Part shown: positions 37,021 to 56,769 of the stretch, piece after piece
Numbering within the stretch: position 1 is the stretch's first letter
How the letters are laid out: each line of letters starts with the position of its first letter
From: an uncultured archaeon
GTDB lineage: Archaea > Thermoplasmatota > Penumbrarchaeia > JASLWR01
Direction: 5' to 3'
DNA length: 64,000 nt
Assembly: GCA_964430885.1 (NCBI GenBank)
Contig: CAYSHM010000004.1
Coordinates: 134,036 to 198,035, forward strand
Notes under the pieces: generated by a model
The model's input: the letters and a program-made list of their open reading frames with translations, nothing else
Databases searched by the model: none
What the model was told of the DNA's origin: nothing
Made by a program: the position numbers and the translations under genes

Positions 37021-37053
37021 AATAAGATCTTGAAATAGACTGATAGGGATATC

Positions 37054-41149: not shown

Positions 41150-41152
41150 GGC

Positions 41153-42388
41153 GTGATCATTGTGAAAGGTAAAAATGAGAAGATGCCTGTGAGTACCATC
41201 AAAAGAATGGCAGCGTTCTCCCTGGTCCTGTTGTCATTTGTTTTCTTATTGATTGCGCATTTTATTCCTGCATGTACAATAGAAGCGGATATGCCAGTAA
41301 GGACTCCTATGGGGGAGACCATCGAGACAGGTTTGGATGGGGAAATTTATCTCCATAGATTTGATATCGGGGCAAAGGTAGAAGGCGGGATTGTAGGTGA
41401 AAAAGTTGAAATTCAGCGTGACGGCTATTTTCTGGAAGGGCCCGGGGATGACCTTTCTGACCGATTGGGGGTCATTATGAACAGTCATGGGAATTACACC
41501 TACGAGATGGCCTCGAGGACCTCCGGTACATATGATCCCTATAAAGGCAGGAACAACGGGGGGAAGATAGCTGTCAAATCGGTTATCGAACGGGTTCCCT
41601 TCTGGGTGGGAGGATTGGAATACAGTCATAAGATCACAATCTACCTGAACAATACCATGAACCTCTCCAGGGTTGATATATCCCGAGTTTGGGTAGAGGT
41701 CTGGTACGACTATAACGATGATACCAATGATTACGAGAAGAAAAAAGTGGTATGGGAAAGGGATGTGAATGATGTTCTCGAGGATGAAACTGATTTCTTG
41801 GAATATTCCCACAGTATGAAATATACCACATCGGAAGATAAAATAGGCATTGCTACCCGGGCGGAATGTACAATGACCGATATATTGGGAAATACGGATG
41901 ACAGTCCGGACCTTCCCTTTGCCTCTGATAGCTATCCCCATCCCCACAATGTATACGTGGTCACCCATTACAACGGGATAAGGGTTGCTCTCCTGGTGCT
42001 TGCATTTCCAATGTTCATTATTTCAGCCCTTCTGGCTATCCCAGGTTCATATTTCATATTTAAGAGCCAAAGACGCGCGTTTAAATATTTTTTTTCAGGC
42101 GGTGTCATCACAGGTCTTGGAATATTTTTCTATTGGTGGGGAGTGAATGCAGTTATAGAGATGTCCTCTGCTTCCTCTGCGCTTTCCGCTATAAGCAAGA
42201 ACTTCTTTGAATGGAATTGGGCAGTTTTTATACCTTTGGTGTCATCAGTAATGCTCTTGGGTGCGGGAGTATTTATCAGATTGTCGTTTCCACCATCTTT
42301 GAAGGATATTGAGGAGGTGGAAGAGTGCTATGAAAATGATGATGGCAGCGTGATGGAAGGGATGGATGAAGGGGAAGGCAGTTCCTAA
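41153..42388 (+). CDS. hypothetical membrane protein (1+3 TM with a large extracellular loop)
   Basis: Long ORF 3 nt after the previous gene; N-terminal TM, about 230-aa loop, three C-terminal TMs, acidic tail. Confidence 0.75.
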   Translation: MIIVKGKNEKMPVSTIKRMAAFSLVLLSFVFLLIAHFIPACTIEADMPVRTPMGETIETGLDGEIYLHRFDIGAKVEGGIVGEKVEIQRDGYFLEGPGDDLSDRLGVIMNSHGNYTYEMASRTSGTYDPYKGRNNGGKIAVKSVIERVPFWVGGLEYSHKITIYLNNTMNLSRVDISRVWVEVWYDYNDDTNDYEKKKVVWERDVNDVLEDETDFLEYSHSMKYTTSEDKIGIATRAECTMTDILGNTDDSPDLPFASDSYPHPHNVYVVTHYNGIRVALLVLAFPMFIISALLAIPGSYFIFKSQRRAFKYFFSGGVITGLGIFFYWWGVNAVIEMSSASSALSAISKNFFEWNWAVFIPLVSSVMLLGAGVFIRLSFPPSLKDIEEVEECYENDDGSVMEGMDEGEGSS

Positions 42389-42579: not shown

Positions 42580-45186
42580 ATGTGTAGCAATAAGAGAACT
42601 GGTAAGTATTGGATGCTTGTTTTGATAGTAAGTGCGGCCTTGCTGGGAATGCCAGGATTTGTATTTCTTAATAATATTTCTTCTTCAGCGTCAGCGGATG
42701 ACATCTATGCTGTTCCATATCCCACTACCCGGACTAGGTCTGCTGGTGAATGGAATCTGCCCATATGGGAGGTTGGTAATTACTGGTCATTCCGAACAAC
42801 TCTGCATGGAGTTACTGACGAGGGCGATGAGTTCGATGAGTGGGAGAACCGCACCTTAACAGTAACGGCGGTGGACGAGTTATATACTGGTCACGGGAAT
42901 CCCGTGGAATGCTACAATCTCACTCTTTCAGGTAATGTTCAGAACTACATGGCAGCCGAGATGGATACTTCGGAATACGGATTTGATTTCGGAACTGTCC
43001 CTTATAAGACCACTTTGGATGCCACCATATCCGGTTATATGCTTATTGAAAAGACCAGTCTGAGCCCGGTACAGCTATACCGGGAGAAGGAAGGTGTTGC
43101 CACAATATACGACCTTCCGGCACTTGTATCTTTTCTAGAAGGCGACTATGACTACAGTGATTTTTCCATCCGAAATAATACTCCTCCACTGGAACTTTTC
43201 CAACTACCCCAGAGCGCTGGTGACTCCTATCATCTATCCTCACGGGTGGATTACTACACCGAGAACTTTCTGGATATACAGGGAGGCCAGACCCGTAGGT
43301 CCCGAAGCCATTATCTATACGAGGATGATGTGGTGGTAACAAGGGATGATATATCTGTCGATCATGCCGATGCTTTCATGAGCGGCGAGGATCAGAGATG
43401 CCTCAAGGTAGTCCATACCGAGAACGGCGGTGATCTGACTACGGACAAGGAGGAAGAAGTACAGCCGCCTGACGGAGGGACCCGCACAATTCATATGTCC
43501 ACAGTTACGGGTTGGTTCACACAGTTCACTTACGATAATCATTACGGCGACATGGCCTCCGGCTATATTGTTACAGCAGATGATTATCTTAAGGATACAA
43601 ATTATCAGGGAAGGGTACCTGAAGTGGCTGATGCTGCATTCCAAAGTGACCAGGTAATTAACAGTGGAGGCGAGAGCACAATACTGAAGGCCAATATATC
43701 CGATCCCGACGGCACTCTGGATATTGATAAAGTAGAAGCCGACCTGGTGGATATTGGAATAGGCGTTCAGGAAATGTATGACGACGGAACCCACGGCGAT
43801 AGGGCGGCCGGCGACTATGAATATGCCCTTGAGATCGACATACTGGATACCGTTCAGGCAGATACCTATTCAATTGACATTACGGCTTACGATCTTCTTG
43901 AGAACACTGCTACGGCCACAGCGGATCTTACCGTGGAGGACGATAACGAACCTCCAAGCATATATTCTGCCTATCACGACCCTTTGGTCCTATATAATGA
44001 CGGAATTACCGAGGTGAGCTTCTTTGCAGATGCAGGGGATGCTGACGGTCTTGAGGACATTGTTGATCTGTATGCCGATCTTTCCGAGATAGGGGGTGCC
44101 AGCCAGGTATCTCTTTCCGATGATGGTACCGGGGTGGACGTGAGCTCGGGTGACGGTCTGTTTTCCCTGCTGCATATAATTCCTGAAAATATAGGTCCAG
44201 GAGAATACGACGTAGTCTTTACCATAGAGGATGGGGCAGGAGCAGAGGCCAACTACTCCCTCGATGTTACAATTGAGGAATATATCCCGGTTCTCCCGCC
44301 GGTAATTATATCCTTTGGTGCGGAACCCGACACGGCCTTACTTGTTGATGATCTGGAGGTGCTTTTAACTCTGGATATAACTGACGGTAATGGTCTGGAT
44401 ACCATTATCCGGGTCGAGGGCGATCTGACAGAGTTGGACGGCAGCAACAGACAGGAGTTCTATGATGACGGCACGAACGGCGATGAGACCGCTGCCGACG
44501 GTACATATTCATATCTTGCTGAGGTCCCGGATTATCTTCTGGATGATCTGGGTGAGAAGGAGGCGGTTTTCACAATGATGGTCACGGTCACCGATGATAC
44601 CAACGAAAAAGCCTCATGCAACATTACACTAACATTGAAGGAGAATAATGAGGCCCCCTATATCCAGTCATTTTCAGCTGAAGGAAAGGATGTTCTGAAC
44701 GATAAGAAGGACGAGGTCAAGGTCACCATCATTGTAGGTGACAATAACACAGTTGCAGATATTGAAAGAGTTTGGATAGATCTCACAGGTGCAGGAGGCG
44801 TGGAGATGGACCTTGCTACAGAATCCCTGGACTTCGAGATGGTGGGAACCTATGAGGGGACCTTTACAGTTCCCAGTTCGGTTCCGCCGGGTTCATATAC
44901 CATATCGCTATATGCAGAGGATTCCGCGGGTCAGCAGGCGGTTTACAGTTTTACCATAGAGGTTACAGCACCGGCCTCAGGCGATGATGATACCGGAGAC
45001 GATGATACAACTGGAGATGACGATACTGGAGACGATGACACCGGTGGCGACGATGATATAACTGGAGATGACGATACTTCCGATGGAAAGGGCAAATCAG
45101 GTGACAGTCCCGGCTTTACGATGGCACTGGTTGCATCTGTTATCGCAGGCTTCATTATTGTGAGCATCTACCGCCGGAAAGAATAA
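42580..45186 (+). CDS. surface protein with repeated Ig-like 'choice-of-anchor X'-type domains and PGF-CTERM
   Basis: Signal peptide; three (Y/S)DDGT..D....D..(Y/F) repeats plus a degenerate fourth; GDDDT linker; SPGF-TM-RRKE. Confidence 0.87.
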   Translation: MCSNKRTGKYWMLVLIVSAALLGMPGFVFLNNISSSASADDIYAVPYPTTRTRSAGEWNLPIWEVGNYWSFRTTLHGVTDEGDEFDEWENRTLTVTAVDELYTGHGNPVECYNLTLSGNVQNYMAAEMDTSEYGFDFGTVPYKTTLDATISGYMLIEKTSLSPVQLYREKEGVATIYDLPALVSFLEGDYDYSDFSIRNNTPPLELFQLPQSAGDSYHLSSRVDYYTENFLDIQGGQTRRSRSHYLYEDDVVVTRDDISVDHADAFMSGEDQRCLKVVHTENGGDLTTDKEEEVQPPDGGTRTIHMSTVTGWFTQFTYDNHYGDMASGYIVTADDYLKDTNYQGRVPEVADAAFQSDQVINSGGESTILKANISDPDGTLDIDKVEADLVDIGIGVQEMYDDGTHGDRAAGDYEYALEIDILDTVQADTYSIDITAYDLLENTATATADLTVEDDNEPPSIYSAYHDPLVLYNDGITEVSFFADAGDADGLEDIVDLYADLSEIGGASQVSLSDDGTGVDVSSGDGLFSLLHIIPENIGPGEYDVVFTIEDGAGAEANYSLDVTIEEYIPVLPPVIISFGAEPDTALLVDDLEVLLTLDITDGNGLDTIIRVEGDLTELDGSNRQEFYDDGTNGDETAADGTYSYLAEVPDYLLDDLGEKEAVFTMMVTVTDDTNEKASCNITLTLKENNEAPYIQSFSAEGKDVLNDKKDEVKVTIIVGDNNTVADIERVWIDLTGAGGVEMDLATESLDFEMVGTYEGTFTVPSSVPPGSYTISLYAEDSAGQQAVYSFTIEVTAPASGDDDTGDDDTTGDDDTGDDDTGGDDDITGDDDTSDGKGKSGDSPGFTMALVASVIAGFIIVSIYRRKE
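44980..45078 (+). repeat. coding tandem repeat, six GDDD(T/I) units of 15-18 bp
   Basis: GDDDT GDDDTT GDDDT GDDDTG GDDDIT GDDDT with synonymous variation. Confidence 0.9.
45109..45186 (+). other. PGF-CTERM sorting signal (coding)
   Basis: PGF, hydrophobic helix and RRK at the C-terminus. Confidence 0.85.
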
Positions 45187-45246
45187 TAACCCGAAAAGCC
45201 TTCATCATATCATAAATGGTATCAGGTGCCGTGAGGTGGTGCGGTA

Positions 45247-46260
45247 TTGCGAATGGTCAGCCGTGACCCATACAAAAAGAGATTCTTCAAAAGGGAACCT
45301 TCTCCTCTAAGAATACTGCTGCTCAGATTACTGATAGTGGTAGTTCTGCTTTTCATCTTGGCCTTCATATTCTGGGCAATAGAGCGGGACAGCATAAAGG
45401 ATACCGCAGGCGGTAATTTTTCATTTTTTGATTCATTATACTTTACAGTTGTAACAGTCACAACCCTTGGTTACGGGGATATAGTCCCGGTCACCGAGGG
45501 TGCCAGGATGTTCGATGCTTTTATAATCACGCCTGTAAGGATGATAGTTTGGGTAATGTTCATCGGCACTGCATATCAGTTGATAATTCAGAAATACTGG
45601 GAGAGGTTCAGGATGAAAAGGGCTCTTAGCAAGATGAAGGGACATGTGATCGTAACCGGCTATGGAACCACTGGGGCCACCACAGTGAAGGAACTGCTTT
45701 TGAAGGGATATGATGAGAACTCTCTTGTTGTTATTGATAGGGACGAGAAGAAGGCCCAAACCGCGGGTGAGGATGGCGTTACGGCTCTAGTAGGTGATTC
45801 CACCAGGGAGAGTGTATTGATGGAGGCTGGGATAGGTACCGCACAGAGCCTACTTGTAACTATACCTCATGATGATACCAATGTGCTTATTGCCCTTACC
45901 GCAAAGGACCTGAATCCCCGGCTGAAAGTTATAGCCCGCGTTAGCCAGAAGGAGAATGTCAAACAGCTGGAAAGAGCAGGCGCGGATATTGTGGTTTCTC
46001 CTTCCCTGACCAGCGGAAATCTAATGGCCATGGCGGTCTCCAGCAGTTCAAGTGTACGGATGATGGGTGATCTTCTAACCACCAGCAGAGGCGAGAATGT
46101 ATCCCAGAGAACGGTCAAATCCGATGAAGTTGGCAAGAGACCCAAAGAATTGAAGGGGATGGTAGTAATAGGAGTGATATCCGGGCAGAAGGATTACGGA
46201 CCAACTAAACTGGACGGTCTTAAACTGAAGAAGGGTGATCAGCTGATCATTATAGGGTGA
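45247..46260 (+). CDS. 2-TM potassium channel with RCK/TrkA-N domain (MthK/Kch-like)
   Basis: Selectivity filter TVTTLGYGD; HVIVTGYG..G; GDST; L.RAGAD.VVSP. Confidence 0.95.
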   Translation: MRMVSRDPYKKRFFKREPSPLRILLLRLLIVVVLLFILAFIFWAIERDSIKDTAGGNFSFFDSLYFTVVTVTTLGYGDIVPVTEGARMFDAFIITPVRMIVWVMFIGTAYQLIIQKYWERFRMKRALSKMKGHVIVTGYGTTGATTVKELLLKGYDENSLVVIDRDEKKAQTAGEDGVTALVGDSTRESVLMEAGIGTAQSLLVTIPHDDTNVLIALTAKDLNPRLKVIARVSQKENVKQLERAGADIVVSPSLTSGNLMAMAVSSSSSVRMMGDLLTTSRGENVSQRTVKSDEVGKRPKELKGMVVIGVISGQKDYGPTKLDGLKLKKGDQLIIIG

Positions 46261-46328
46261 GTGATTTTTTAGCAATCTCCAAATTCATATTTGTATTACT
46301 ATTAGTCCATTACAAAAATAATAAAGAT

Positions 46329-46994
46329 CTATGACGAATAATCTGAATTGTAGCTGACCAGTGCAGCATCCTTGACCCCTTTGAGTTTCAGGAACTTGTC
46401 CACAGTCCCAACCTCTTTGTCCCGAAGCCTCACTTCTACCATCAGCTCTATTCCTGAACCATTGACCGTCCGCGACCTTACCTTGTGCTTGGGCAGGCCG
46501 GTCTGGACCTTTTTTTCAGCCTCCTTGTTATAGTGGATCACAAGAAGATAAGGGCTGGACGGTTTCAGGTTCACCCTGGTCAATCCAATAAGGAACAGCC
46601 CTATCATCAAGCATCCGACTATGGCTATCATGTAGAGCCCGGCTCCGCATGTTATGCCCACAGCAATGGCCCAGAAAGTGAAGATGATGTCAGTAGGATC
46701 CTTTATGGCAGCCCTGAAACGCACAATGCTCAATGCACCCACCATACCCAGGGATAGGGCGATATTGGAACTTATGGGCAGTATCACGAGAGCAGTCACC
46801 AGGCTTGTCAGGACAAGTCCTACATTGAAGTTGCGGGTATAAAGGACGCCCTTGAAGGTCACTCGGTATATGAAAAAGATAAAGAGCGCCACCAAGAATG
46901 TCACCGCCAGCGCTATTACTACCCTTTCAACTGTAAGCGTTTGATATGTGTTTGCAGGATTTGTGAATTCATCCATCAGATCGTTCCAGTTCAT
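46329..46994 (-). CDS. DUF4956 family membrane protein (MgtC/SapB-like TM domain + C-terminal soluble domain)
   Basis: Y..TF.GV.Y...FN, SNIALSLGMVGALSIVRFR.AIKDP.D, FWAIAVGI.CGAG. Confidence 0.93.
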   Translation of the reverse strand: MNWNDLMDEFTNPANTYQTLTVERVVIALAVTFLVALFIFFIYRVTFKGVLYTRNFNVGLVLTSLVTALVILPISSNIALSLGMVGALSIVRFRAAIKDPTDIIFTFWAIAVGITCGAGLYMIAIVGCLMIGLFLIGLTRVNLKPSSPYLLVIHYNKEAEKKVQTGLPKHKVRSRTVNGSGIELMVEVRLRDKEVGTVDKFLKLKGVKDAALVSYNSDYSS

Positions 46995-47696
46995 CTATTG
47001 GTCCTCCCAATCATTCAGCTTGCTGTATCTTTTACTTATAACAAATTTGCCTATTGCAGTGCGGGGATTGATGCTGGACGGCAATATTCCCCTTATATGT
47101 ACAGGCAGAATTTCGTTGAATTTAATTTCAAGTATTATCCCGTAATCACCGAATCCCATGGATATCAAATTTTTGTCGAACAGGGAAACGGAGTTCAGAC
47201 CGGTATGCAGTCCTATATCAAAGGTTATCCGAACATTGCTTATAGGGTACACATATGCCTCCCTGTAATACTCAACTATGACATCTGGTTTCAGTATGTT
47301 CAATTTGCTGTCGCTGTAGAATCTTCTAAGGAGAGGTTCCTTCGAGTTCCGCAGATGGGCTATATCCCCCTCGATCATCCTCTCAGCGTCATCCCTGGCT
47401 ACCTGCGCAATGTCTTTCTTGACATAGTTATCTATCTTTGATTTACATTCGAACTTTATTATGGTGTCCTTTAGATCGTATATCCTCAGGCGGTACTTCT
47501 TCCGTTTTCTGACCCCTGCCAATTTTTCAAAGAGCGCAGTTTTTCTGACATCGTCAAAGTACAGGCTCCTTATGTGATACTGGCCGTCCTCACCAGCATA
47601 TGGGTCCTGCTTCATTACAGTCCTCAGCTTTGTCCTCAAGAGCCGATATTCCATTTTATTTATATGGTATTTGTATTCATGCCTCAGTCCTTTCAC
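46995..47696 (-). CDS. VTC domain (CYTH/TTM superfamily) polyphosphate-polymerase-domain protein
   Basis: RHEYKY, Y.IRSLYFD, RKKYRLRIY, ECKSK, YYREAY, RITFD, ILEIKF. Confidence 0.93.
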   Translation of the reverse strand: MKGLRHEYKYHINKMEYRLLRTKLRTVMKQDPYAGEDGQYHIRSLYFDDVRKTALFEKLAGVRKRKKYRLRIYDLKDTIIKFECKSKIDNYVKKDIAQVARDDAERMIEGDIAHLRNSKEPLLRRFYSDSKLNILKPDVIVEYYREAYVYPISNVRITFDIGLHTGLNSVSLFDKNLISMGFGDYGIILEIKFNEILPVHIRGILPSSINPRTAIGKFVISKRYSKLNDWEDQ

Positions 47697-48457
47697 TTTT
47701 CCGCCCCTCCTCTATTCTTTCTATCCTTTAATCGGCCGATGAATATTACAAGTGCAATCAAAATTACTATCAGGAGTACCAATAACCATCCTTCCTTTGC
47801 GGAACCCTCTTCATCAGGTGTGATCTCGTCATTGGACCATCCAGGAGTGGGTGTTGTCAGGTATTCCCAGTTGGGATTGCCGTCGGGGTATCTGCCGTAT
47901 GAAACATCCCTGTTCTGCTTCCCGAAAATTATTGAATCGATAATGGTAGTGCCGTCCCTGTCCACCAAACCCAGTTCTTCACCGTTAGCCCTGAGCTTGA
48001 AGTCAAGGTGGAGTATTCCCAGTTCAGGCAGGTTGTCTGCCCATAGTATGATATGTCCGTCAGCCGGGATGGTCACATTGTCAGGGAACATCCATTTCGT
48101 GGGGTTACCAAGATTGTCGGTGAAATACATGCCGTCGAGAACCACCTCTTCATCTCCTCTGTTGTAAAGTTCCACCCAATCAGGATAATCTCCCTGGGAA
48201 TCGGTATAGGAACCGTCGTTGTCAGCCATGAACTCGTTGATGAAGAGTATTCCCTTTAATGGATTGGATACGTTGCTGCTTCCATTGCCTTGCCTTGTAA
48301 AGATTATCTTGGAATTATATTGCTCTGGGAGGGGGTTGATTTTCGACACTTCGGAAACATTATTGGATATTATGGTCGAGACTGAAAACAGCATAATAGC
48401 TAGAATAAATACGTCGACCCTTACACCAGAATGTCTTGGTTCGCCTCTCATGTTCAT
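47693..48457 (-). CDS. single lamin-tail-domain protein with N- and C-terminal hydrophobic segments
   Basis: FINEFMADN...DWVELYN...TDN...KW.FP...FKL.A.GE...DVSYGRYPDG...PTPG; ATGA overlap with the upstream stop, GTGA overlap with the VTC gene. Confidence 0.88.
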   Translation of the reverse strand: MNMRGEPRHSGVRVDVFILAIMLFSVSTIISNNVSEVSKINPLPEQYNSKIIFTRQGNGSSNVSNPLKGILFINEFMADNDGSYTDSQGDYPDWVELYNRGDEEVVLDGMYFTDNLGNPTKWMFPDNVTIPADGHIILWADNLPELGILHLDFKLRANGEELGLVDRDGTTIIDSIIFGKQNRDVSYGRYPDGNPNWEYLTTPTPGWSNDEITPDEEGSAKEGWLLVLLIVILIALVIFIGRLKDRKNRGGAEK

Positions 48458-51400
48458 CCCATCCAATTTATATCATCATCGTCAGATGGAGTATAGGGTC
48501 CCCGGTCATCATCACTCCTCCAGTTTCCCCAGTAGTCCCAATCTTCACTGATTTCTTCTTCTACTTTTTCTTCTTTCTTCCTAGATCTTCCGAGCCTGCC
48601 ATAGCGCCCTCGGCGCCCCCTCTTTCTGTCCTTCTTACCTTTCCCTTTCTCTCTTCTGGATCTCTCTTCCACGATCTCGACATCCAAAATTTGGGTTTGG
48701 CGATTCTCCTTTTTTTTAGATGATTCCGGTCCAATAAAGATTATTTCAGCTTCCCCTTTCTCTTGATCCTCAGTTTTTTCTTCACCCGTTTCATCTATCT
48801 CACGGGCTTCTTCTACATCTTCACCCTCAGTTTCCTCCGCACCTTTGTCTCTACCCATTTTGAGAACGCCAGCATAGATCAGGGCCAGAATGATCAGTAT
48901 AAGTACAATGTATATTGCCCAGGTGACAAGTCCTCCCCCTTTATCCTTATCATTTCCTCCACTCTCATCGGGAGGCCCACCATTGTTATCTCCGGAATGC
49001 CCGTTATTAGGATCGCCTGTCCCATTTGGAAGTTCTCCTTCAGTAGCGTTTCGAAGAATATTGGGATCTCCGGGGCTTGGATCAAGATAATGCCAAGAAT
49101 CAGTTCCGTCCGTGAATCGTCCGTATGAAACATCCTCGGTCTGAGGGCTGAAAGCCACTGAATCCAGTAAACTCGCTCCGTCTCGTGTAAAGAGAGCTAT
49201 CTCCTCACCAGAAGCGTTGAGTTTGAAACCGGCATGCAACCCCCCCAGTCGGCTCATGTTATCGGCCCATATTACCAGAAAACCATGAGGGGGTATTTCA
49301 GTTCCAGGGGGGATCATCCATTTCAAGGGTCTGTTCAAATTGTCAGTGAGGAACATACCTCCAAGGTCGACCGTAAAATTGGCCCTGTTGTATAGCTCGA
49401 TCCAGTCCGGAAAAATGCCCGTATTATTACCGTATTCCAGGGTTGCACCGTTATCAGCCATGAACTCATTGATCACTATGTTATCAGGCATTATTGAGAT
49501 TTCATCTTTGATATTGGGTTCTCCGGGGCTTGGATTGTCCATGATCATTATCCAATCCGGACCTCCGTCAGGGTATCTCCCCATTGAAGCATTGCGGTTC
49601 TGTACCCCGAATACTCTGGAATCGATAAGGGTGTATCCGTCTGAGTGGAAGAGGCCTATCTCCTCGCCGTTGCCGTCAAGTTTGAAAGAGGCGTGCAAGT
49701 CTCCGAGGTCGGCTCTTCCCGAAGCCAGGACCACCAGGAAACCGCCGGCCTTGATTGATGAGTTCGGAGGGAATACCCATTTGTCAGGGTTTGCCAGATT
49801 GTCCGTAAGATATAGGCCCTGCATATTGATGGTGCTGCTGCCCGGATTGAAAAGTTCTATCCAATCGAAACCCAGGTACTCGCTGTTCCTTGATAGATCG
49901 GTCAGCTCTGGAGGATTAGGCCTGGCCATGAACTCGTTGATCAAAATGACCGGCGGTTCAGCCGGTGGGTCGTCCAGTCTGTTAAAGGAACCCGGTGAGG
50001 GATGGTCCGCCATGAACTCCCAGTTGTCCACTCCATCGGGGAATCTCCCCATGGATACATTCCCGCTCTGATCCCCGAAATCCACCGAATCAATGAGAGT
50101 GAATCCGTCACTTGCGAATAGGTTAATGTTCTCCCCCTGGGCCCGAAGACCGAAACTGGTCCAATGACAATCATCACCAATCCATTCGTTTTCTCCGCAC
50201 CACAGGACCAGATACCCCTTGGAAGATACAGTGGTATTTTGCGGAAATATATATTTATCCGGACTCAGGGGGTCGTCGCTGAGAAAGCAGCCGTGGAGAT
50301 CCAGACTCTCGTTTCCCGTATTGTATAGCTCGATCCAATCAGGATATGTTCCATTGGGGCCTTGGATTATTCCACGGTTGGAGGCCATGAACTCGTTGAT
50401 CACTATTCCCTGGGGTAAGTTCACAATTTCTTCATCGTTATCCATGTTGGGTAAACCCGGTGAGGGATTGTCTTCCATGTATATCCAAGTCCCATTACCA
50501 TCAGGATATCTTCCGTAGGACACATCCGGAGGTATGTCCCCGAAGCTCACGGAATCGATCACCGTCTCACCGTCAGGTTCCACAAGGGAAACCTGCTCCC
50601 CGCTTGCATTCAGCCTGAAACCCGTATGCAGGGGACCAAGCCGCCTATCTCCGCTTGCCCATACCAGCAGATGTCCCTTGGGAGCTATGAACGAGCCCAT
50701 GGGGAACTGCCATTCCAGAGCGGTGCTGAGATTGTCGCAAAGGCATAATCCGCTTATATCCACGGTCCTGTTCTCAAGGTTGTATATTTCGATCCAGTCA
50801 CTGAAGTTCCCCGGTCCGTTCATATAGCTAATGGTATTCTCGTTATCCGCCATTAGTTCGTTGATCACTACTTTGGGTATTTTTCTCACAGTTGTGATGT
50901 CTGCTTTGTTCAGTGCGCTCCATTCGCCCTGGTACAGTGCTCTTGTCTTGACAGTTGCCGAGCGTTCGAGAGTTATTGGTGACGAATAGACCAAGGCTGT
51001 GGACGAGGGTGTTCCGAGAACGTTTTTCTCAGAACTTAGCTGAAGATCGAAACTGATATCACTGCTTGTATCTGAATCCTGATGCACCTCAACGGCAATG
51101 ATGTTGTCTCCCTCCATAAGGATACCTTCAGCATCCACCAGATACTCGAACCACATGTCCTCATCCGGTGTGTAGTCCGAAGCTTCAGTCATATAGTCTA
51201 TCTCAATCCCTTCTGGCATGTTGCTTCTGACCAGTTCAACACCGTTCAGATATACCACCGCTCCATCGTCTCTAAGAAGTTTTATGATCAGCTTCGAATG
51301 TTCATCAGCGTCGTCAATATGGAATGTTTTCCGAAAATATGTAGTGATATAACATGGATCTCCAGGAAGTGTTCTGCCGTCATCAACCTCTGTGGCCTCA

Positions 51401-54012
51401 TCACCGTCGCCATAGCCTAACTCAGCTGGTCCTGAGGGCCAATTGATGTCTCCGGTCCTCCATTCAGTCCCCTGGTCCGAACCGTTATCCAGGTAGTTCC
51501 AGACCTCCCCTGATTGTATCAGATCACTGTACAAGGAGACACCGGGGATACACGGATCGTTTCCGTCCAGTGTATAGTAGATAGTACCGTTAGGGCATGC
51601 CATTTCCAGCTTTTCGTCTCCAATAAGCTCTCCATTCCGCAAATCCGTTCCGTTGATCATGAATTCAGGGGGTTCTATTTTGGGGTATAATGAAGCGTCT
51701 TTGAGGAACCCAAGAACCACGTCGGTCCTGTTTGGAAATAATTCCTGATAAAGTGCATCTCTTACTGCAAGCCAATGGTCCCTGTCATAGGATGGTTTTC
51801 CCGAAACATCACCCCACCTGGCGGATTCGGCTGGAATTGCCAGATCCACCCTTTCCGCCAGTTTCCTGTAGAGCGCCATTGCGTTCTCGGGGGTTAAACT
51901 TCCGTTATTGAAGAAGTGATGGTAGACCCGGTCCCCGAACTCCTGCCTGAATTCCCAATTCTTCCTGAGAGCCTGGTATATCCAGCTGGGGCAGTCGTAA
52001 TTGTTCTCACCTGTAAGGTCTTGTCCCCAGGTGTCCAGAAGGGACATCTCGCCGTCCCATACAAAGAATCTCCAGGCTTCGCTGTTGTCACGCTTTCTAG
52101 TGGCGTGCCAGTTGTGGTGGTCCCAGTCCATTGAACCGGCATAAAGGTTCAGGAGTATGTAATCGATGAGATTTGTGGTGTTTATGAGTTTATCGAAATC
52201 AGGGTTAGGTGTTCCGTCCGGATTCTCACCTTGGATCTTCCTGTAGCTTTCATTTGTCCACATATCCTCCTCTCCCGCCATCTCTATTACCTTGTCCCAT
52301 GCGCTTCTGTTCCCGTTCTTCATCTCACCCTCGTGGATCACATCCCAGTCTTGGTTCTCACCGCCGAAGTAGCTTGTAAGATAGGATTCATCAGGCCTCT
52401 CGATGGGATTGTAAAGACCCCAGTAGAGTCCATTGACATATAGATGTACAAATGTCCCCCTGGAGTTCATGGATCCCATGGCTATCTGGGCGGCCCTGGT
52501 CCATTCATCCCTTATCAACTGGGCCAGATCCCTAGTGGTATCGGTATACAGATTGTGCCATGCGTCCTCGAAATTGGATCTGAGAATAATCGAGTTGAAC
52601 TCCTGAATACCCTCCTCGCCGAACAATGGATAGTTCAAACTGCCTGGGCCATAGCTGCTCCTGAATATCAGCCTGAAGGAGTGTTTCTTGAATCTCGGCG
52701 CCCGTCCCAAGCCGCCGTAGAGCCTTACACCGCAGTGGTGGGTGAATCCCGGTTCTCCTTCAGGATCGATAAATTCTACTGAACAGTTCCTCTCATATCC
52801 TCTACCGTCGCCCCACGTGTAGAAGTAGATGCCTGCGTCGTCAGGGTCCCAGCCATGGCGGAAGAGATCGTCCTTATCCAGCACCAGGGATATTGAGGGG
52901 ATGGATCTAAGACTGTCCTTCATGTCGAAAGGATTTCCGCCGCTGTCATTGAGGGGCATACTATTGACGATATCCGGGTCCATCTCATAGTCGCTAGGAA
53001 CATATCCCGGGGGAGTGGCGTTGCTGTCCTTTCCCCAGGTTGCAGGAAAGCCGTCCGGGAGTATGGGCTGCTCCAGCACATCATTGAAGAAAATATATGA
53101 ATTGGTCACGATATCCGAGGGAAGCCATCCCGTCTGGACGGCTATTGCCCTTACGCATGTGGTATTCTCGATAAATAGCGGAGCGGAATAGATCTCCCCG
53201 GATGTCTCATCAGGCCAGCTCCCGTCCCTTGAATATTTTATGACCGCATCCTGGTTCGGGGAATCAAGGGCGAGCTCGAAGGGGCTGTCGAAAAAGCCGT
53301 GTTCGGTATTGAAATTAACATCAGGTACTATGCCCAGGTGACCCGGGGTATTGGCTGATCCAGGTGTGGGTTCTGAAAAGTACTGTTCTTCTCCACTGAA
53401 TATTCCGTAGGATACATTGCTCCTCTGCCTTGGGAAGTAAGGGTGGTAATGGAAGTATGGAAATAGACCATTTGGCTCAACAAGGGCCAAATATTCACCT
53501 TCACCGGAGAGTCTGAAATTGGTATGCAGCTCATCGCCGCTTATCCTTCTGTCCTTCCCTGATGCGAAGACAAGTATATGTTCTTGAGGATCTATAGGGG
53601 TATCTGGGAACCGCCATTTGGTGAGTTCATCAGGGTCATCAGTGAGATACCATCCCTGAAGATTGACCTGGGAAGCGTTATTGTTTGCCAGTTCCACCCA
53701 ATCCGACAGATCACCGTCGTCGTCCATCAATATCCCGTCGTTCACCGCAAGGAGTTCACTGATTATGATATTATCAGGAAGGTCCCTAGTGTCAGGGTGA
53801 GCAGGATTGGCGTTGTGAGATGGTGCTTTAGGGCTCATTGATACTTTCGGTCCTGCTTCAGCAGATTGTTCCTCTGGGGAAAAGGATAAGCAATCCCTGG
53901 AGCTGTGGATTTCCAATGGTGAAAATAATGTTGGCAGAAGAAAAGAAATTAAAACAGCAGCAGTGAGCAGACCCCTCTTAGAATATCTGTTTTTTTTATC
54001 CATTGATCGCAC
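48454..54012 (-). CDS. giant CotH-family kinase: signal peptide, LTD, Fn3/chitobiase-C-like domain, CotH, jelly-roll insertion, four LTDs, TM, charged tail
   Basis: CotH motifs KHSFRLIF, FVHLYVNGLYWGLYNPIERPD, DWDHHNW, WDGEMS; five I(N/S)E...DW.EL LTD units; IKYSRDGS and IYYTLDG motifs. Confidence 0.92.
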   Translation of the reverse strand: MRSMDKKNRYSKRGLLTAAVLISFLLPTLFSPLEIHSSRDCLSFSPEEQSAEAGPKVSMSPKAPSHNANPAHPDTRDLPDNIIISELLAVNDGILMDDDGDLSDWVELANNNASQVNLQGWYLTDDPDELTKWRFPDTPIDPQEHILVFASGKDRRISGDELHTNFRLSGEGEYLALVEPNGLFPYFHYHPYFPRQRSNVSYGIFSGEEQYFSEPTPGSANTPGHLGIVPDVNFNTEHGFFDSPFELALDSPNQDAVIKYSRDGSWPDETSGEIYSAPLFIENTTCVRAIAVQTGWLPSDIVTNSYIFFNDVLEQPILPDGFPATWGKDSNATPPGYVPSDYEMDPDIVNSMPLNDSGGNPFDMKDSLRSIPSISLVLDKDDLFRHGWDPDDAGIYFYTWGDGRGYERNCSVEFIDPEGEPGFTHHCGVRLYGGLGRAPRFKKHSFRLIFRSSYGPGSLNYPLFGEEGIQEFNSIILRSNFEDAWHNLYTDTTRDLAQLIRDEWTRAAQIAMGSMNSRGTFVHLYVNGLYWGLYNPIERPDESYLTSYFGGENQDWDVIHEGEMKNGNRSAWDKVIEMAGEEDMWTNESYRKIQGENPDGTPNPDFDKLINTTNLIDYILLNLYAGSMDWDHHNWHATRKRDNSEAWRFFVWDGEMSLLDTWGQDLTGENNYDCPSWIYQALRKNWEFRQEFGDRVYHHFFNNGSLTPENAMALYRKLAERVDLAIPAESARWGDVSGKPSYDRDHWLAVRDALYQELFPNRTDVVLGFLKDASLYPKIEPPEFMINGTDLRNGELIGDEKLEMACPNGTIYYTLDGNDPCIPGVSLYSDLIQSGEVWNYLDNGSDQGTEWRTGDINWPSGPAELGYGDGDEATEVDDGRTLPGDPCYITTYFRKTFHIDDADEHSKLIIKLLRDDGAVVYLNGVELVRSNMPEGIEIDYMTEASDYTPDEDMWFEYLVDAEGILMEGDNIIAVEVHQDSDTSSDISFDLQLSSEKNVLGTPSSTALVYSSPITLERSATVKTRALYQGEWSALNKADITTVRKIPKVVINELMADNENTISYMNGPGNFSDWIEIYNLENRTVDISGLCLCDNLSTALEWQFPMGSFIAPKGHLLVWASGDRRLGPLHTGFRLNASGEQVSLVEPDGETVIDSVSFGDIPPDVSYGRYPDGNGTWIYMEDNPSPGLPNMDNDEEIVNLPQGIVINEFMASNRGIIQGPNGTYPDWIELYNTGNESLDLHGCFLSDDPLSPDKYIFPQNTTVSSKGYLVLWCGENEWIGDDCHWTSFGLRAQGENINLFASDGFTLIDSVDFGDQSGNVSMGRFPDGVDNWEFMADHPSPGSFNRLDDPPAEPPVILINEFMARPNPPELTDLSRNSEYLGFDWIELFNPGSSTINMQGLYLTDNLANPDKWVFPPNSSIKAGGFLVVLASGRADLGDLHASFKLDGNGEEIGLFHSDGYTLIDSRVFGVQNRNASMGRYPDGGPDWIMIMDNPSPGEPNIKDEISIMPDNIVINEFMADNGATLEYGNNTGIFPDWIELYNRANFTVDLGGMFLTDNLNRPLKWMIPPGTEIPPHGFLVIWADNMSRLGGLHAGFKLNASGEEIALFTRDGASLLDSVAFSPQTEDVSYGRFTDGTDSWHYLDPSPGDPNILRNATEGELPNGTGDPNNGHSGDNNGGPPDESGGNDKDKGGGLVTWAIYIVLILIILALIYAGVLKMGRDKGAEETEGEDVEEAREIDETGEEKTEDQEKGEAEIIFIGPESSKKKENRQTQILDVEIVEERSRREKGKGKKDRKRGRRGRYGRLGRSRKKEEKVEEEISEDWDYWGNWRSDDDRGPYTPSDDDDINWMG

Positions 54013-54207
54013 CTGATTGGTGTGTACCGACAGGCCAATTCTATGGATTATATTCCATTATAAAATTTTTGCATAGTATGTTCAGCAGAAAAACACTCAA
54101 ACCTGTTCTAGAAAGCTCATGCCTCACTAAAATAATTATATGTCCCGTATGTCTCCTGCTTTGCTTACTCTGACAATGAACAAAACAAATATAATCGAGA
54201 TACGTGC

Positions 54208-56769
54208 TTGACCTTGTTAATGGAATTGGGTAAATTAGTTCTGTTCCTGAAAAGGAAATGGTTCCTGCCTGCACTTTCAGTTTTGATAATAACCGCACTT
54301 TGCTTTACTCAACTCACAGACCTGGATTTCAGTGTTGATTTTCAGGATTTTCTTCCCGACAGCGATACGGTTAGGGCAAAGGAGGATCTAGATGAGCTTT
54401 TCTCCGGAGATTCCTCCGTGCATTTGATCCTTCTCACGGAGAACAATGCTGACGACGATGTCCTAGCCCCGGCTTCCGTTAGGGCCGGTTATTTGCTGTC
54501 AAGGGAGCTTCAGGGTGTCTCAGGCGTGGACTCGGTCAATTCTATATATTTGGGATATGATCGTATTTTTGACATGCTCACCGGTATAGGACTCATGGAT
54601 GCTTCCGATTCGGCAATTGTCAATCTGACCTCGGTATTTCACCGAGTGGTCAGGGATGATAACGGTTCGGTCTTCCTGAATTTCGCTCTCTCAGATTACA
54701 ACTATTCGGCACCCCAGGTAAACAGCACAGCAGAGGATATCAGGGATTATTCAGATGTGTTTCTATCCGGAGACTTCAAGGATCGCGGAGATGCCGGCCG
54801 AACCCTTGCCGTTCTATTCCTGGAATCGGATCTGGCCCCGGAAGAGAGGAAGGCTGTGGTCAAAGATGTTATGGATACCTGTGCGGGGTTCGCCAATAAT
54901 TACGGTTCAGGGAATTTTCCATTAAAGGCTGAACATACCGGAGAGGACCTTTTTCTACTTGAGATGGACGAGGAGATAGACTCCAACAAGATAGTTCTGG
55001 GACTCTTTGCACTTGCCTTTACCTCCCTGGTCCTTTTCCTTTCCTTCAGAAGGTTCACAAGGGTGATATTTCCCCTCCTGACACTGGGATGTGCCTTGGC
55101 ATGGACCTTCGGTCTTCCCGGATTCTTCGGAATGGAAACCTCGCCTCTAGACCTGGCAGTTGTACCGCTGGTTGCCGGATTGGGCATCGACTATATGTTT
55201 CATCTTCTCAAACGCTATGATGAGGAGATTTGCGACCTTGCAGGCGGTTCAACAACCCCATTCGATGAGGGAGAATCATCCTCTCTAGATATATATGAAA
55301 GAGCCTTGTCCCTCTCCGTTGGGAAGGTCAAAAGACCTGTGATCCTTGCATCCTTTACCACTGTGGTGGCCTTTCTTACTGCCCTGTTCAGTCCTGTGGA
55401 GGCCGTGGCCAATTTCGGGATAAAATGTACCATTGGCATAGTGATCACCCTTTTACTGAGCTTCTTCTTCCTTTTACCCCTGTGCATTTTCATAGAACAT
55501 CGCCTGGTTAGCAAGGATAAATGTCCGAATCCCAAGGATAACCGGACCCCCTACTTCATAGGCCACACCATGAACAACATTTCAAGGGGCGTGACGGTTT
55601 ATCCTGTATTTGTTGTTATAGGGATACTGCTTGTGAGTACATTCTCCCTGATATATGCTGTTGATGTTGAGAAGAGTTTCGAGACCGATGATATAATATC
55701 GAATGATCTGGACGCCCGGGCAACCGAACACACCCTGAACAAGTATATAGGGGCCTCTTCCCAGTCAAGGGTATACTATTACTACCGAGGCGATGGAGAA
55801 CCGGGGGTAGAACTTGTCAATGATATGGCCGAGAAACTGCTGTATGTAGAAGAAGCCCCCCATGTGGTTATGCTGGGAGACCTACCTCATACGAATTCAC
55901 TTCTGGATATTTTCAGCAGGGCTATAAGCCATTCACCGGAACTTGCAGAGAAATATTCATTCTCCGGGAAGGATCACCTTCCATTGACCAACTGCACGGA
56001 TAAGCAGGTGGAGGATTTTGTAAAATACCTTGAGAACAATTCAACATCCTATGGACTTCTGGAAGATTCTACTTTCTCGGATATGATCGGTAATGTATTT
56101 CAGCGCCATGGGAAGGGTTATTCGGCACTTATAGAGATTTTCGTCTATGTGGATACCTATGGGGAATCCAGTTCTCTGGTGTACAGTCTGAAAAGCGCTC
56201 TGGAGAATGAGGACAGTTCCGGGGAGATAGATATAACCTTGACCGGTTTGGCTGTAATGACAGTGGAAACAGTGGACGGTATGCAGGATACCATGCTCTA
56301 CGGCACTCTCGCAGCATTCCTGGTCGGTCTTATTGTTCTTGTGGCAGTCTACAGAAAGGTCAGTTCTCCTTTCCTGGCCATGCTTCCTGTGGTGGTGTCG
56401 ACATTATGGATATTGGGATTCATGTCAATGTTCTCCATATCGCTTAACATATTGACCATAACCATAACTTCCCTGGTAATAGGAATTGGTTTGGATTATT
56501 CTATCCACATAGTGGAACGATACGAGCAGGAAAGGAAGAAGCATGATCCTGAAAAGTCCCTCAAACGAACATTGAAATACACAGGATCCTCAATTTTTCT
56601 GTCCGCTTTTACTACAATTTGCGGATTCCTTATACTGCTGTCTTCCTCACTTCCAGTTATGAGGACCTACGGATTGATCAGCGGGATTGCCGTCCTGTTC
56701 TCATTCATCCTGTCCTGTGTTGTGGTGCCCATAATTCTACTCAAAACCCTCCGGAAGAAAACAGTCTGA
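54208..56769 (+). CDS. MMPL/RND family transporter
   Basis: Two repeats of TM, large loop and 5 TMs; GLGIDY and GIGLDYSIH...RY motifs. Probable start ATG 54220. Confidence 0.93.
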   Translation: MTLLMELGKLVLFLKRKWFLPALSVLIITALCFTQLTDLDFSVDFQDFLPDSDTVRAKEDLDELFSGDSSVHLILLTENNADDDVLAPASVRAGYLLSRELQGVSGVDSVNSIYLGYDRIFDMLTGIGLMDASDSAIVNLTSVFHRVVRDDNGSVFLNFALSDYNYSAPQVNSTAEDIRDYSDVFLSGDFKDRGDAGRTLAVLFLESDLAPEERKAVVKDVMDTCAGFANNYGSGNFPLKAEHTGEDLFLLEMDEEIDSNKIVLGLFALAFTSLVLFLSFRRFTRVIFPLLTLGCALAWTFGLPGFFGMETSPLDLAVVPLVAGLGIDYMFHLLKRYDEEICDLAGGSTTPFDEGESSSLDIYERALSLSVGKVKRPVILASFTTVVAFLTALFSPVEAVANFGIKCTIGIVITLLLSFFFLLPLCIFIEHRLVSKDKCPNPKDNRTPYFIGHTMNNISRGVTVYPVFVVIGILLVSTFSLIYAVDVEKSFETDDIISNDLDARATEHTLNKYIGASSQSRVYYYYRGDGEPGVELVNDMAEKLLYVEEAPHVVMLGDLPHTNSLLDIFSRAISHSPELAEKYSFSGKDHLPLTNCTDKQVEDFVKYLENNSTSYGLLEDSTFSDMIGNVFQRHGKGYSALIEIFVYVDTYGESSSLVYSLKSALENEDSSGEIDITLTGLAVMTVETVDGMQDTMLYGTLAAFLVGLIVLVAVYRKVSSPFLAMLPVVVSTLWILGFMSMFSISLNILTITITSLVIGIGLDYSIHIVERYEQERKKHDPEKSLKRTLKYTGSSIFLSAFTTICGFLILLSSSLPVMRTYGLISGIAVLFSFILSCVVVPIILLKTLRKKTV

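Follow-up and report, generated by a model that had tools for sequence, protein, structure and literature searches.

The pel loci of streptococci, clostridia and bifidobacteria include, as described by Whitfield et al. (2020, PMC7112168), accessory genes for CotH, for a polyphosphate (polyP) polymerase and for DUF4956 and DUF4832 proteins; the three proteins encoded by SIR_1594-1592 of Streptococcus intermedius have been modelled, with the proposal that the polyP may remain cytoplasmic (bioRxiv 10.1101/2024.04.20.589940), and the NELoc-2 locus of Clostridium perfringens contains VTC and CotH genes (PMC11677781). A related gene set is found in the DNA analysed here, a stretch of 64,000 nucleotides (hereafter the window) from contig CAYSHM010000004.1 of an uncultured archaeon of the phylum Thermoplasmatota. 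Its positions 46329-54012 comprise four minus-strand open reading frames (ORFs) coding, in this order, for a CotH/LTD protein (P0001), an LTD anchor (P0002), a VTC protein (P0003) and a DUF4956 protein (P0004). An earlier note made from the letters of the window alone (the original prediction) stated that VTC, DUF4956 and CotH genes co-occur in bacteria and are not known to have an established function; this is in print in the first two sources, and searches of the literature on DUF4956, on CotH with polyphosphate and VTC, and on prokaryotic VTC yielded no experiment on any prokaryotic member. The window's set is a pel-independent archaeal version of this published but uncharacterised cassette.

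In the pel-locus cassette, a CotH that is exported and has its catalytic residues, a Vtc4-like protein of the cytoplasm and a membrane protein with several transmembrane (TM) helices and a C-terminal ACT domain are encoded contiguously; the cotH, VTC and DUF4956 genes of the window are likewise contiguous and co-oriented. The window differs in that its host is archaeal, that no Pel or DUF4832 protein is found among the 12 ORFs scanned at 35.5-64 kb, that an extra gene codes for an LTD-only anchor, and that the CotH protein is a giant of 1852 aa with five LTDs, a C-terminal TM segment and a 135-aa tail. Moreover, the S. intermedius preprint regards polymerase and membrane protein as unrelated to each other, whereas here they are taken as one unit.

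The best explanation of the locus and its relatives is a VTC–DUF4956 core with an exchangeable surface partner, in which synthesis is coupled, as in the yeast complex, to delivery across the membrane, because a Vtc4-like enzyme and a membrane protein are always co-encoded, usually beside exported proteins; the confidence placed in this reading falls a little short of even. The basic cytoplasmic VTC protein would polymerise polyP from ATP, as yeast Vtc4 does, while docked on DUF4956, an MgtC-like five-helix protein whose RFR motif and basic ACT-like domain would face the cytoplasm. DUF4956, probably oligomeric, would carry either the chain as it grows or its phosphoryl groups through the membrane, and outside the cell the exported partner of the cassette would use or hold the product. 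The partners in the window would be the LTD anchors and the CotH kinase domain, for which polyP could serve as the phosphoryl donor in an exterior that supplies no ATP, their places being taken elsewhere by Cthe_2159 or LTD-only proteins.

The constancy of the core and the variability of its partner are seen in a survey of 80 public VTC homologues, in which 6 kb around the VTC gene was searched with local hidden Markov models (HMMs) iterated from the window's proteins; these overlook some members, as a CotH of locus L017, unseen in the first round, was found with Pfam. DUF4956 is encoded at 78 of the 80 loci, both misses being at contig ends, and its linkage to VTC is far above chance. CotH is encoded at 51 loci, LTD at 37 and Cthe_2159 at 11, so counted that an exported protein of one of these three families stands near VTC at 66 loci and none at 14. 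The gene order varies by clade (VTC-DUF4956-CotH, CotH-DUF4956-VTC or DUF4956-LTD/CotH-VTC). The partner is an LTD-only protein at L010, L012, L013, L015 and L019, and a Cthe_2159 protein at L004, L010, L012, L024, L088 and L089.

The pair is equally constant in whole genomes, where the counts are descriptive and come without a statistical test, the sampled genomes being mutually related. It is present in 43 of the 653 sampled genomes, and DUF4956 above the cut-off occurs in none without VTC. In the window's phylum (301 genomes) VTC is found in six genomes and DUF4956 in the same six, with CotH in four of the carriers and, outside them, in one genome plus one sub-threshold match. In Bathyarchaeia (151 genomes; the class around L011) there are six strong VTC genomes, again with DUF4956 in the same six, and CotH in one carrier and nowhere else; two weak VTC-like matches in this sample stand without DUF4956, and one broken DUF4956 fragment scores below the threshold. 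In Bacillota (201 genomes; the phylum around L025) the same 31 genomes carry VTC and DUF4956, in agreeing copy numbers, and CotH is found in 24 of them and in three others, so that 24 of the 27 CotH-positive genomes have the pair. Altogether CotH accompanies the pair in 29 of the 43 carriers and is missing from 14 (2/6, 5/6 and 7/31 in the three samples). VTC and DUF4956 are thus a constant pair, and CotH a frequent but optional companion. A set of 14 control genomes repeats the pattern: VTC and DUF4956 occur in the same three (Bacteroides thetaiotaomicron, Corynebacterium glutamicum and Methanosarcina acetivorans), and CotH in these and in Bacillus subtilis. Both PPK1 and PPK2 are present alongside the pair in M. 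acetivorans and B. thetaiotaomicron, so that the pair is no mere replacement for PPK. The search of HMMs and neighbourhoods called for in the original prediction thereby finds VTC and DUF4956 in identical genomes in all three samples, and the claim that the two are one unit agrees with their inseparability across genomes, as would be expected of a split synthase with a membrane partner; the idea of a split synthase/translocase is, as far as genomics can carry it, well supported.

The two weak VTC-like matches of Bathyarchaeia (25-28 bits; G355:C4:82283-82813 and G361:C14:1602-2132) lie in 451-aa ORFs of genomes with no DUF4956 and possibly represent another subfamily of triphosphate tunnel metalloenzymes (TTM). 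In two bacterial metagenome-assembled genomes (MAGs) whose VTC proteins are among the closest to P0003, a phosphate-selective porin O/P gene lies directly upstream of VTC (L005:553-1836) and a Na/Pi cotransporter with PhoU domains near the pair (L008:13197-14846); in both, an SdiA-regulated/NHL beta-propeller gene separates DUF4956 from the gene for a double-LTD protein. Such phosphate genes are in line with a polyP-making pair. A Ca2+ exchanger was considered as a further cassette member and rejected, as Na_Ca_ex is found in L085 only, and L086 has in its stead an unrelated ORF that is apparently spurious.

The history of the genes also separates the core from its partner. In a quick VTC tree (midpoint root for drawing only; the 80 of 86 rows with both partners kept) P0003 belongs to a clade of 15 (Shimodaira-Hasegawa-like approximate likelihood ratio test, 99) together with a Methanocellaceae MAG, ten Bathyarchaeia and three unclassified bacterial MAGs. 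The five other VTC proteins of the same phylum are only 21-24% identical to P0003 and form a separate, distant clade, and three genomes of the window's own family have none of VTC, DUF4956 and CotH; the cassette was probably acquired horizontally. The identities of DUF4956 repeat the VTC pattern, and the core pair is 50-67% identical to that of Bathyarchaeia, versus 15-17% for the CotH domain of P0001 and the CotH of the same Bathyarchaeia (maximum 27% to any aligned CotH), which argues that CotH was added separately. Since VTC and DUF4956 identities agree and those of CotH do not, the core pair appears to have moved as a unit while the surface partner was swapped. The Methanocellaceae genome, which has the closest VTC relative, has no CotH at all and carries a Cthe_2159 gene after the pair, an arrangement also found in L024, L010, L012, L088 and L089.

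At the window's locus the four ORFs (Table 1) follow one another without spacers. The stop codon of gene 1 (TGA 48456-48454) shares bases with ATG 48457-48455 of gene 2 (ATGA, 48454-48457), that of gene 2 (TGA 47695-47693) with GTG 47696-47694 of gene 3 (GTGA, 47693-47696), and the VTC stop TAG 46997-46995 abuts the DUF4956 ATG 46994. Ribosome sites of the GGAGG type are found upstream of the VTC and DUF4956 starts. ATG 54003 is a more likely start of gene 1 than GTG 54012, as AGGTG lies six bases 5' of it; gene 2 may start at TTG 48466 or at ATG 48457. A single transcription unit is the best explanation of the arrangement, with a candidate promoter and a candidate terminator at its two ends, and an Rfam scan of 45000-56000 returned no family. 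Pfam matches of all four genes exceed the curated cut-offs. The joined minus-strand genes, the two overlaps and the abutment of the original prediction are all borne out by the ORF list and by a base-by-base reading of the joins, as are its CotH, LTD, VTC and DUF4956 domain calls.

Table 1. Features of the CotH/LTD–VTC–DUF4956 locus (positions in the window)
Feature	Position	Strand	Description or evidence
Gene 1 (P0001)	48454-54012	-	1852-aa type-I surface protein with five LTDs and a CotH kinase domain
Gene 2 (P0002)	47693-48466	-	257-aa LTD-only surface anchor
Gene 3 (P0003)	46995-47696	-	233-aa cytoplasmic VTC-domain protein, Vtc4-like
Gene 4 (P0004)	46329-46994	-	221-aa DUF4956 membrane protein
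Candidate operon promoter AAAAATTTTATAAT	54057-54070	-	box resembling TFB recognition element (BRE)/TATA; read by eye; about 55-65 nt upstream of ATG 54003
P0001 signal peptide or membrane anchor, aa 15-33	53914-53970	-	Kyte-Doolittle window 2.02; KKNRYSKR before the segment
P0001 LTD 1, aa about 81-182	53467-53772	-	PF00932 match
P0001 CotH kinase-fold domain, aa 440-742	51787-52695	-	Pfam CotH; D629, N634, D653
P0001 LTDs 2-5, aa about 1045-1620	49153-50880	-	four PF00932 matches; the last adjoins the membrane anchor
P0001 C-terminal TM anchor, aa 1699-1717	48862-48918	-	hydropathy 2.99
P0001 135-aa cytoplasmic tail	48457-48861	-	alternating acidic and basic blocks (KGKGKKDRKRGRRGRYGRLGRSRKK); acidic Trp motifs
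Candidate archaeal terminator CTTTATTATTTTTG	46313-46326	-	T-rich run; read by eye; directly 3' of the DUF4956 stop

P0003 matches Pfam VTC (PF09359) with 106.6 bits (cut-off 23, E 1.9e-30) over profile positions 2-218 of 235; it is basic (isoelectric point, pI, 9.6) and has no TM or other hydrophobic segment, no SPX domain and no sequons. Among Protein Data Bank (PDB) sequences a narrow VTC profile (A1, 24 members) found nothing, and a wider one of diverse homologues (A2) was required, which matched chains of yeast Vtc4 only (3g3q, 3e-15; 8i6v_E, 1.1e-13). Counted along the printed A2 alignment, Vtc4 R196, K200, R264, R266, E279, K281, K294, Y359, R361 and R373 correspond to P0003 R5, K9, R69, R71, E83, K85, K94, Y143, R145 and R156, respectively. 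A profile of the C-terminal part (A5) aligned to 3g3q with a non-significant but colinear match (E 1.3), in which E426, K428, S457 and K458 fall on E190, K192, G216 and K217. The residues needed for polyP synthesis are K200, R264, R266, K281, R361, K458, S457, Y359 and E426, the last of which binds Mn2+, and K458 alone among them differs in the inactive Vtc2/Vtc3, according to bioRxiv 10.1101/2023.01.27.525886. P0003 is identical at eight of these nine, six of them, the triphosphate-binding ones, by significant alignment, and the mapped catalytic residues are invariant or nearly so across the family. The identification of the VTC protein as a Vtc4-type catalytic domain, made in the original prediction, thus gains a Vtc4-like catalytic set that is predicted to be kept.

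Compared with the yeast complex of Vtc4, Vtc3 and Vtc1 (3g3q, 7ytj, 8i6v), the window's system shares the catalytic family, eight of the nine residues just listed (six by significant alignment) and the tie of the enzyme to a membrane protein. It differs in that P0003 is separate and soluble, without an SPX domain or a fused three-helix channel domain, that the membrane partner is of an MgtC-like family with an ACT domain, and that E7 replaces T198; the target side would be the cell exterior, whereas in yeast it is the vacuole. Two further features of VTC proteins are worth mentioning. In 16 of the 24 A1 members, the protein ends with an acidic Trp tail, [YF]N[DES]WED[QNS], which in P0003 is encoded at 46998-47018, and many bacterial homologues (P0246-P0283, e.g., P0248, P0253 and P0257) carry a charge-rich N-terminal extension of 130-390 aa that belongs to no Pfam family and looks disordered.

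The membrane protein P0004 matches DUF4956 (PF16316) with 40.8 bits (cut-off 30.6, E 2.4e-10). In an alignment of 24 diverse members (A4), five positions of the motif GA.S.VRFR (aa 86-94) never vary (G86, A87, R92, F93 and R94), and 90% or more of the members keep S89 and V91. The AlphaFold2 model built from this 24-row alignment (predicted local distance difference test 78, predicted template modelling score 0.63) has five predicted membrane helices (aa 22-46, 54-74, 78-94, 100-117 and 121-140) followed by a beta-alpha-beta-beta-alpha-beta ACT-like domain (aa 147-214) of pI 9.7. Two loops (aa 44-55 and 92-102) are basic, as is the stretch that follows helix 5; by the positive-inside rule this suggests an N-out, C-in protein, in which R92-F93-R94 and the ACT domain would lie on the cytoplasmic side. 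Basic residues at the cytoplasmic membrane face would be a further likeness to yeast VTC, where K24 and R31 of Vtc1 are reported to lie there, against R92 and R94 of DUF4956 in the orientation proposed here. In fold searches, the C-terminal domain resembles TM1266 (Z 10.6), the ACT domain of RelA and the C-domains of MgtC proteins (7qa5 and 2lqj, Z 8.8), with weak Foldseek E-values of 0.013-0.05; the membrane part found no match in the search with P0004, no separate search being made with this part alone, and an Atlas search with a P0004 homologue returned DUF4956 clusters only.

The kinship to MgtC is a distant one. P0004 itself scores 21.8 bits against Pfam MgtC (PF02308), below the cut-off of 31.4, while nine of the 24 DUF4956 members match it at E<=0.01, and the NCBIfam MgtC/SapB match of P0004 is 2.4e-5. 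DUF4956 is like MgtC/SapB/YhiD proteins in its multi-helix membrane domain followed by a cytoplasmic ACT-like domain, with weak similarity in sequence and in C-domain structure, and is distinguished from them by the GA.S.VRFR motif and the obligatory VTC partner.

The exported side of the cassette is represented in the window by P0001 and P0002. In P0001, Pfam recognises LTD (1.3e-73, five stretches), CotH (PF08757; 80.3 bits, cut-off 23.8, E 2.4e-22), CHB_HEX_C_1 and Fn3_assoc, and a scan of protein parts adds a second CHB_HEX_C/Fn3_assoc module, giving the order signal/anchor, LTD, CHB_HEX_C/Fn3_assoc, CotH, CHB_HEX_C/Fn3_assoc, four LTDs, TM and charged tail. The protein has only two hydrophobic segments (aa 15-33 and 1699-1717), and all of its 31 N-x-S/T sequons lie between them (12.6 expected from shuffling). 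In the topology predicted from these segments and sequons, the CotH kinase domain and every LTD face the exterior, in keeping with the outward-facing kinase of the original prediction; P0003, which has no such segment, is predicted to be inside. P0002 has an N-terminal TM segment (about aa 15-37), one LTD (aa 72-179; Pfam 1.8e-14) and a C-terminal TM segment (aa 228-246); a small LTD protein of this kind sits between DUF4956 and VTC in the Bathyarchaeia loci L010, L013, L015 and L019.

The kinase domain appears intact. The CotH domain of P0001 alone matched no PDB sequence, and a wider profile of 16 CotH domains (A3) was required, which aligned to residues 37-357 of Bacillus cereus CotH (5jd9_A) at 2.2e-48. 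D629 and D653 occupy two of its four invariant columns, opposite D224 and D247 of B. cereus, and are spaced by 23 residues, as are D228 and D251 of B. subtilis, the numbering offset between the two Bacillus proteins being our deduction; the B. subtilis variants D228Q and D251A are reported to be inactive in PMC7821199. The catalytic D629, N634 and the metal-binding D653 are all present in P0001, which thus shares with Bacillus CotH (5jd9, 5jda) the kinase fold, the catalytic Asp, an Asn five residues on and the metal-binding Asp. The Bacillus protein differs in having 360 aa and acting in the ATP-containing mother cell, whereas the window's domain is displayed outside an archaeal cell in a multidomain anchor. 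In two of the three CotH-positive Bacillota without VTC (G522 and G563) CotH is 360-368 aa long.

Archaeal relatives of P0001 have in common a last LTD, a TPGW motif, a TM segment and a short basic stop-transfer end; they lack the 135-aa tail, which is peculiar to P0001. A Pfam scan of protein parts assigned the tail to no family; its acidic Trp motifs, EDWDYW and DDDDINW, resemble the acidic Trp tail of the VTC proteins.

Several observations weigh against a synthase-translocase that serves a surface partner. The 14 carriers without CotH and the 14 loci with no exported partner within 6 kb argue that the pair works without a kinase. In a PDB search, the DUF4956 profile found no significant relative and no Vtc chain at E<=10, and DUF4956 is, to judge by these profiles, not akin in sequence to the Vtc1-type channel domain. 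Five clusters of VTC–DUF4956 fusions, which might have served as Rosetta-stone support, are single read-through records, one of them without the VTC C-terminus, and carry little weight. An invariant Glu of the prokaryotic VTC family, E7 in the R-x-E-x-K motif of beta-1, stands at the position of Vtc4 T198 and resembles the Glu by which hydrolytic TTM enzymes bind metal, for which reason P0003 might hydrolyse instead of polymerising, and Vtc4 S457 is replaced by Gly216 in the non-significant C-terminal alignment. Finally, the ectodomains are highly acidic (net -159, with every LTD at pI 4.0-4.4), which, set beside the basic VTC protein and ACT domain, makes the LTDs unlikely as direct binders of a polyanion such as polyP.

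Two other kinds of fusion likewise count for little as Rosetta-stone support. About 16 clusters of DUF4956–CotH fusions lack half of each domain, and a protein joining VTC to a trigger-factor C-terminus (P0356, 332 aa) is a chimera, probably arising from assembly or gene call. A 477-aa fusion of a PelG exporter with DUF4956 occurs in Eisenbergiella on 44 contigs and carries the NCBI name PelG (P0400-P0402).

The original prediction went further and had the pair feed polyP or phosphoryl groups to the kinase. As the general purpose of the pair this does not stand, since CotH is absent from 14 of the 43 carriers and from the closest relative; at the window's locus a polyP-fed CotH is possible, the kinase being intact, outward-facing and translationally coupled by all predictions. 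The proposal in its fullest form, i.e., a polyP synthase-translocase with an MgtC-like channel unrelated to that of eukaryotic VTC, phosphoanhydride energy brought to the ATP-free surface, a CotH that phosphorylates surface proteins or glycans there with polyP in place of ATP, and the sole polyP enzyme of PPK-less archaea, is rather unlikely to hold in every part.

A first rival reading is a cytoplasmic polyP store. VTC would make the polymer, DUF4956 would, like MgtC, tether VTC to the membrane or regulate it there, a metabolite being sensed by the ACT domain, and the surface proteins would be co-regulated only, e.g., under phosphate stress, nothing passing the membrane. It suits the genome, in which no PPK1 or PPK2 was found, the MgtC likeness of DUF4956 (nine of 24 members, the NCBIfam match and the fold matches to 7qa5 and 2lqj), the possibly cytoplasmic polyP envisaged in the S. 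intermedius preprint, the phosphate-uptake genes beside the pair in L005 and L008, and the pair alone at 14 loci. It leaves unexplained the exported proteins at 66 of the 80 loci, the pair in nearly all CotH-positive Bacillota (24/27) and the translational coupling in the window, and sits poorly with M. acetivorans and B. thetaiotaomicron, which have the pair alongside PPK1 and PPK2; on balance it is judged unlikely.

A second rival keeps the extrusion of polyP and changes its use: the polymer would be held through Ca2+/Mg2+ bridges by acidic scaffolds, such as LTD arrays and Cthe_2159, and act as a matrix, a cation store or a mineral nucleus, with CotH an optional modifier and not a consumer. 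One surface partner can replace another, and the LTD-only and Cthe_2159 proteins among them are non-enzymatic; the extreme acidity of the ectodomains, which is awkward for direct binding, is what such bridging would use. Pel is a cationic polysaccharide, and the PelG–DUF4956 fusion on 44 contigs joins an exporter of this system to the membrane partner. Bacterial cassettes, moreover, adjoin Pel operons (PMC7112168). On the other side, the sole cation-transporter gene in a relative's cassette, Na_Ca_ex of L085, is not conserved in sister loci, and the conserved CotH active site of P0001 implies catalysis rather than mere scaffolding, so that this account, too, is given a low probability. That VTC is instead a TTM-type triphosphatase or nucleotide-converting enzyme under DUF4956 control, signalling the state of the envelope, is very improbable, for although E7 is unlike Vtc4 T198, with a likeness to hydrolytic TTM enzymes, and P0003 has no SPX domain or fused channel, it matches Pfam VTC at 1.9e-30, keeps the whole triphosphate cage of Vtc4, including the equivalent of K458 (by the alignment of E 1.3), and its profile has Vtc4 chains as its only best solved relatives.

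Should the VTC–DUF4956 core make polyP, it would be a prokaryotic route besides PPK1 and PPK2 and a candidate enzyme for archaea with neither, and should it pass polyP outward, it would account for the placement of polyP outside cells. Extracellular polyP is reported for Mycobacterium tuberculosis, and no exporter was named in the abstracts listed by a search on extracellular polyP. If true, the proposal would also account for exported kinase-fold enzymes that work without ATP. As for scale, 31 of the 201 sampled Bacillota have the pair, and the VTC profile search gave 8002 cluster representatives at E<=0.001. Free of pel and with a predicted intact active site in every enzyme, the window's locus would serve well to supply genes for such tests; its cassette would be a reasonable choice in which to test for a prokaryotic VTC-type polyP synthase-translocase.

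The genome (3.13 Mb, 44 contigs, 91.6% complete) carries one copy each of VTC, DUF4956 and CotH. The host is archaeal, as ribosomal protein S19e is present, whose family matches only the four archaeal genomes among the controls; mcrA is absent from the genome. The DNA of the window is present in four DNA runs from a single marine-metagenome study, two of which may be its source, and no RNA run was listed for it. No match to PPK1 (PF02503) or PPK2 (PF03976) was found in the genome at its 91.6% completeness, which makes the VTC gene its only recognisable candidate for a polyP-making enzyme. LTD is represented by 24 matches in about ten ORFs of 700-2366 aa (contigs C1, C5, C6, C7, C10, C29 and C34), and its arrays in such giant proteins are thus a common surface building block of the host.

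Next to the CotH gene and divergent from it, 195 bp away, lies an MMPL/RND-type transporter gene (54208-56769, plus strand, 853 aa). On the far side of the DUF4956 gene, a MoxR-type AAA ATPase gene and a VWA-domain gene (35536-38901, plus strand) are followed by two ORFs without a Pfam family (39008-42388) and by a gene for an 868-aa Ig-like surface protein (42580-45186). The minus strand at 60277-63978 codes for a giant surface protein with FG-GAP, ASPIC-UnbV and PKD repeats, at least 1233 aa long, which continues past the end of the window.

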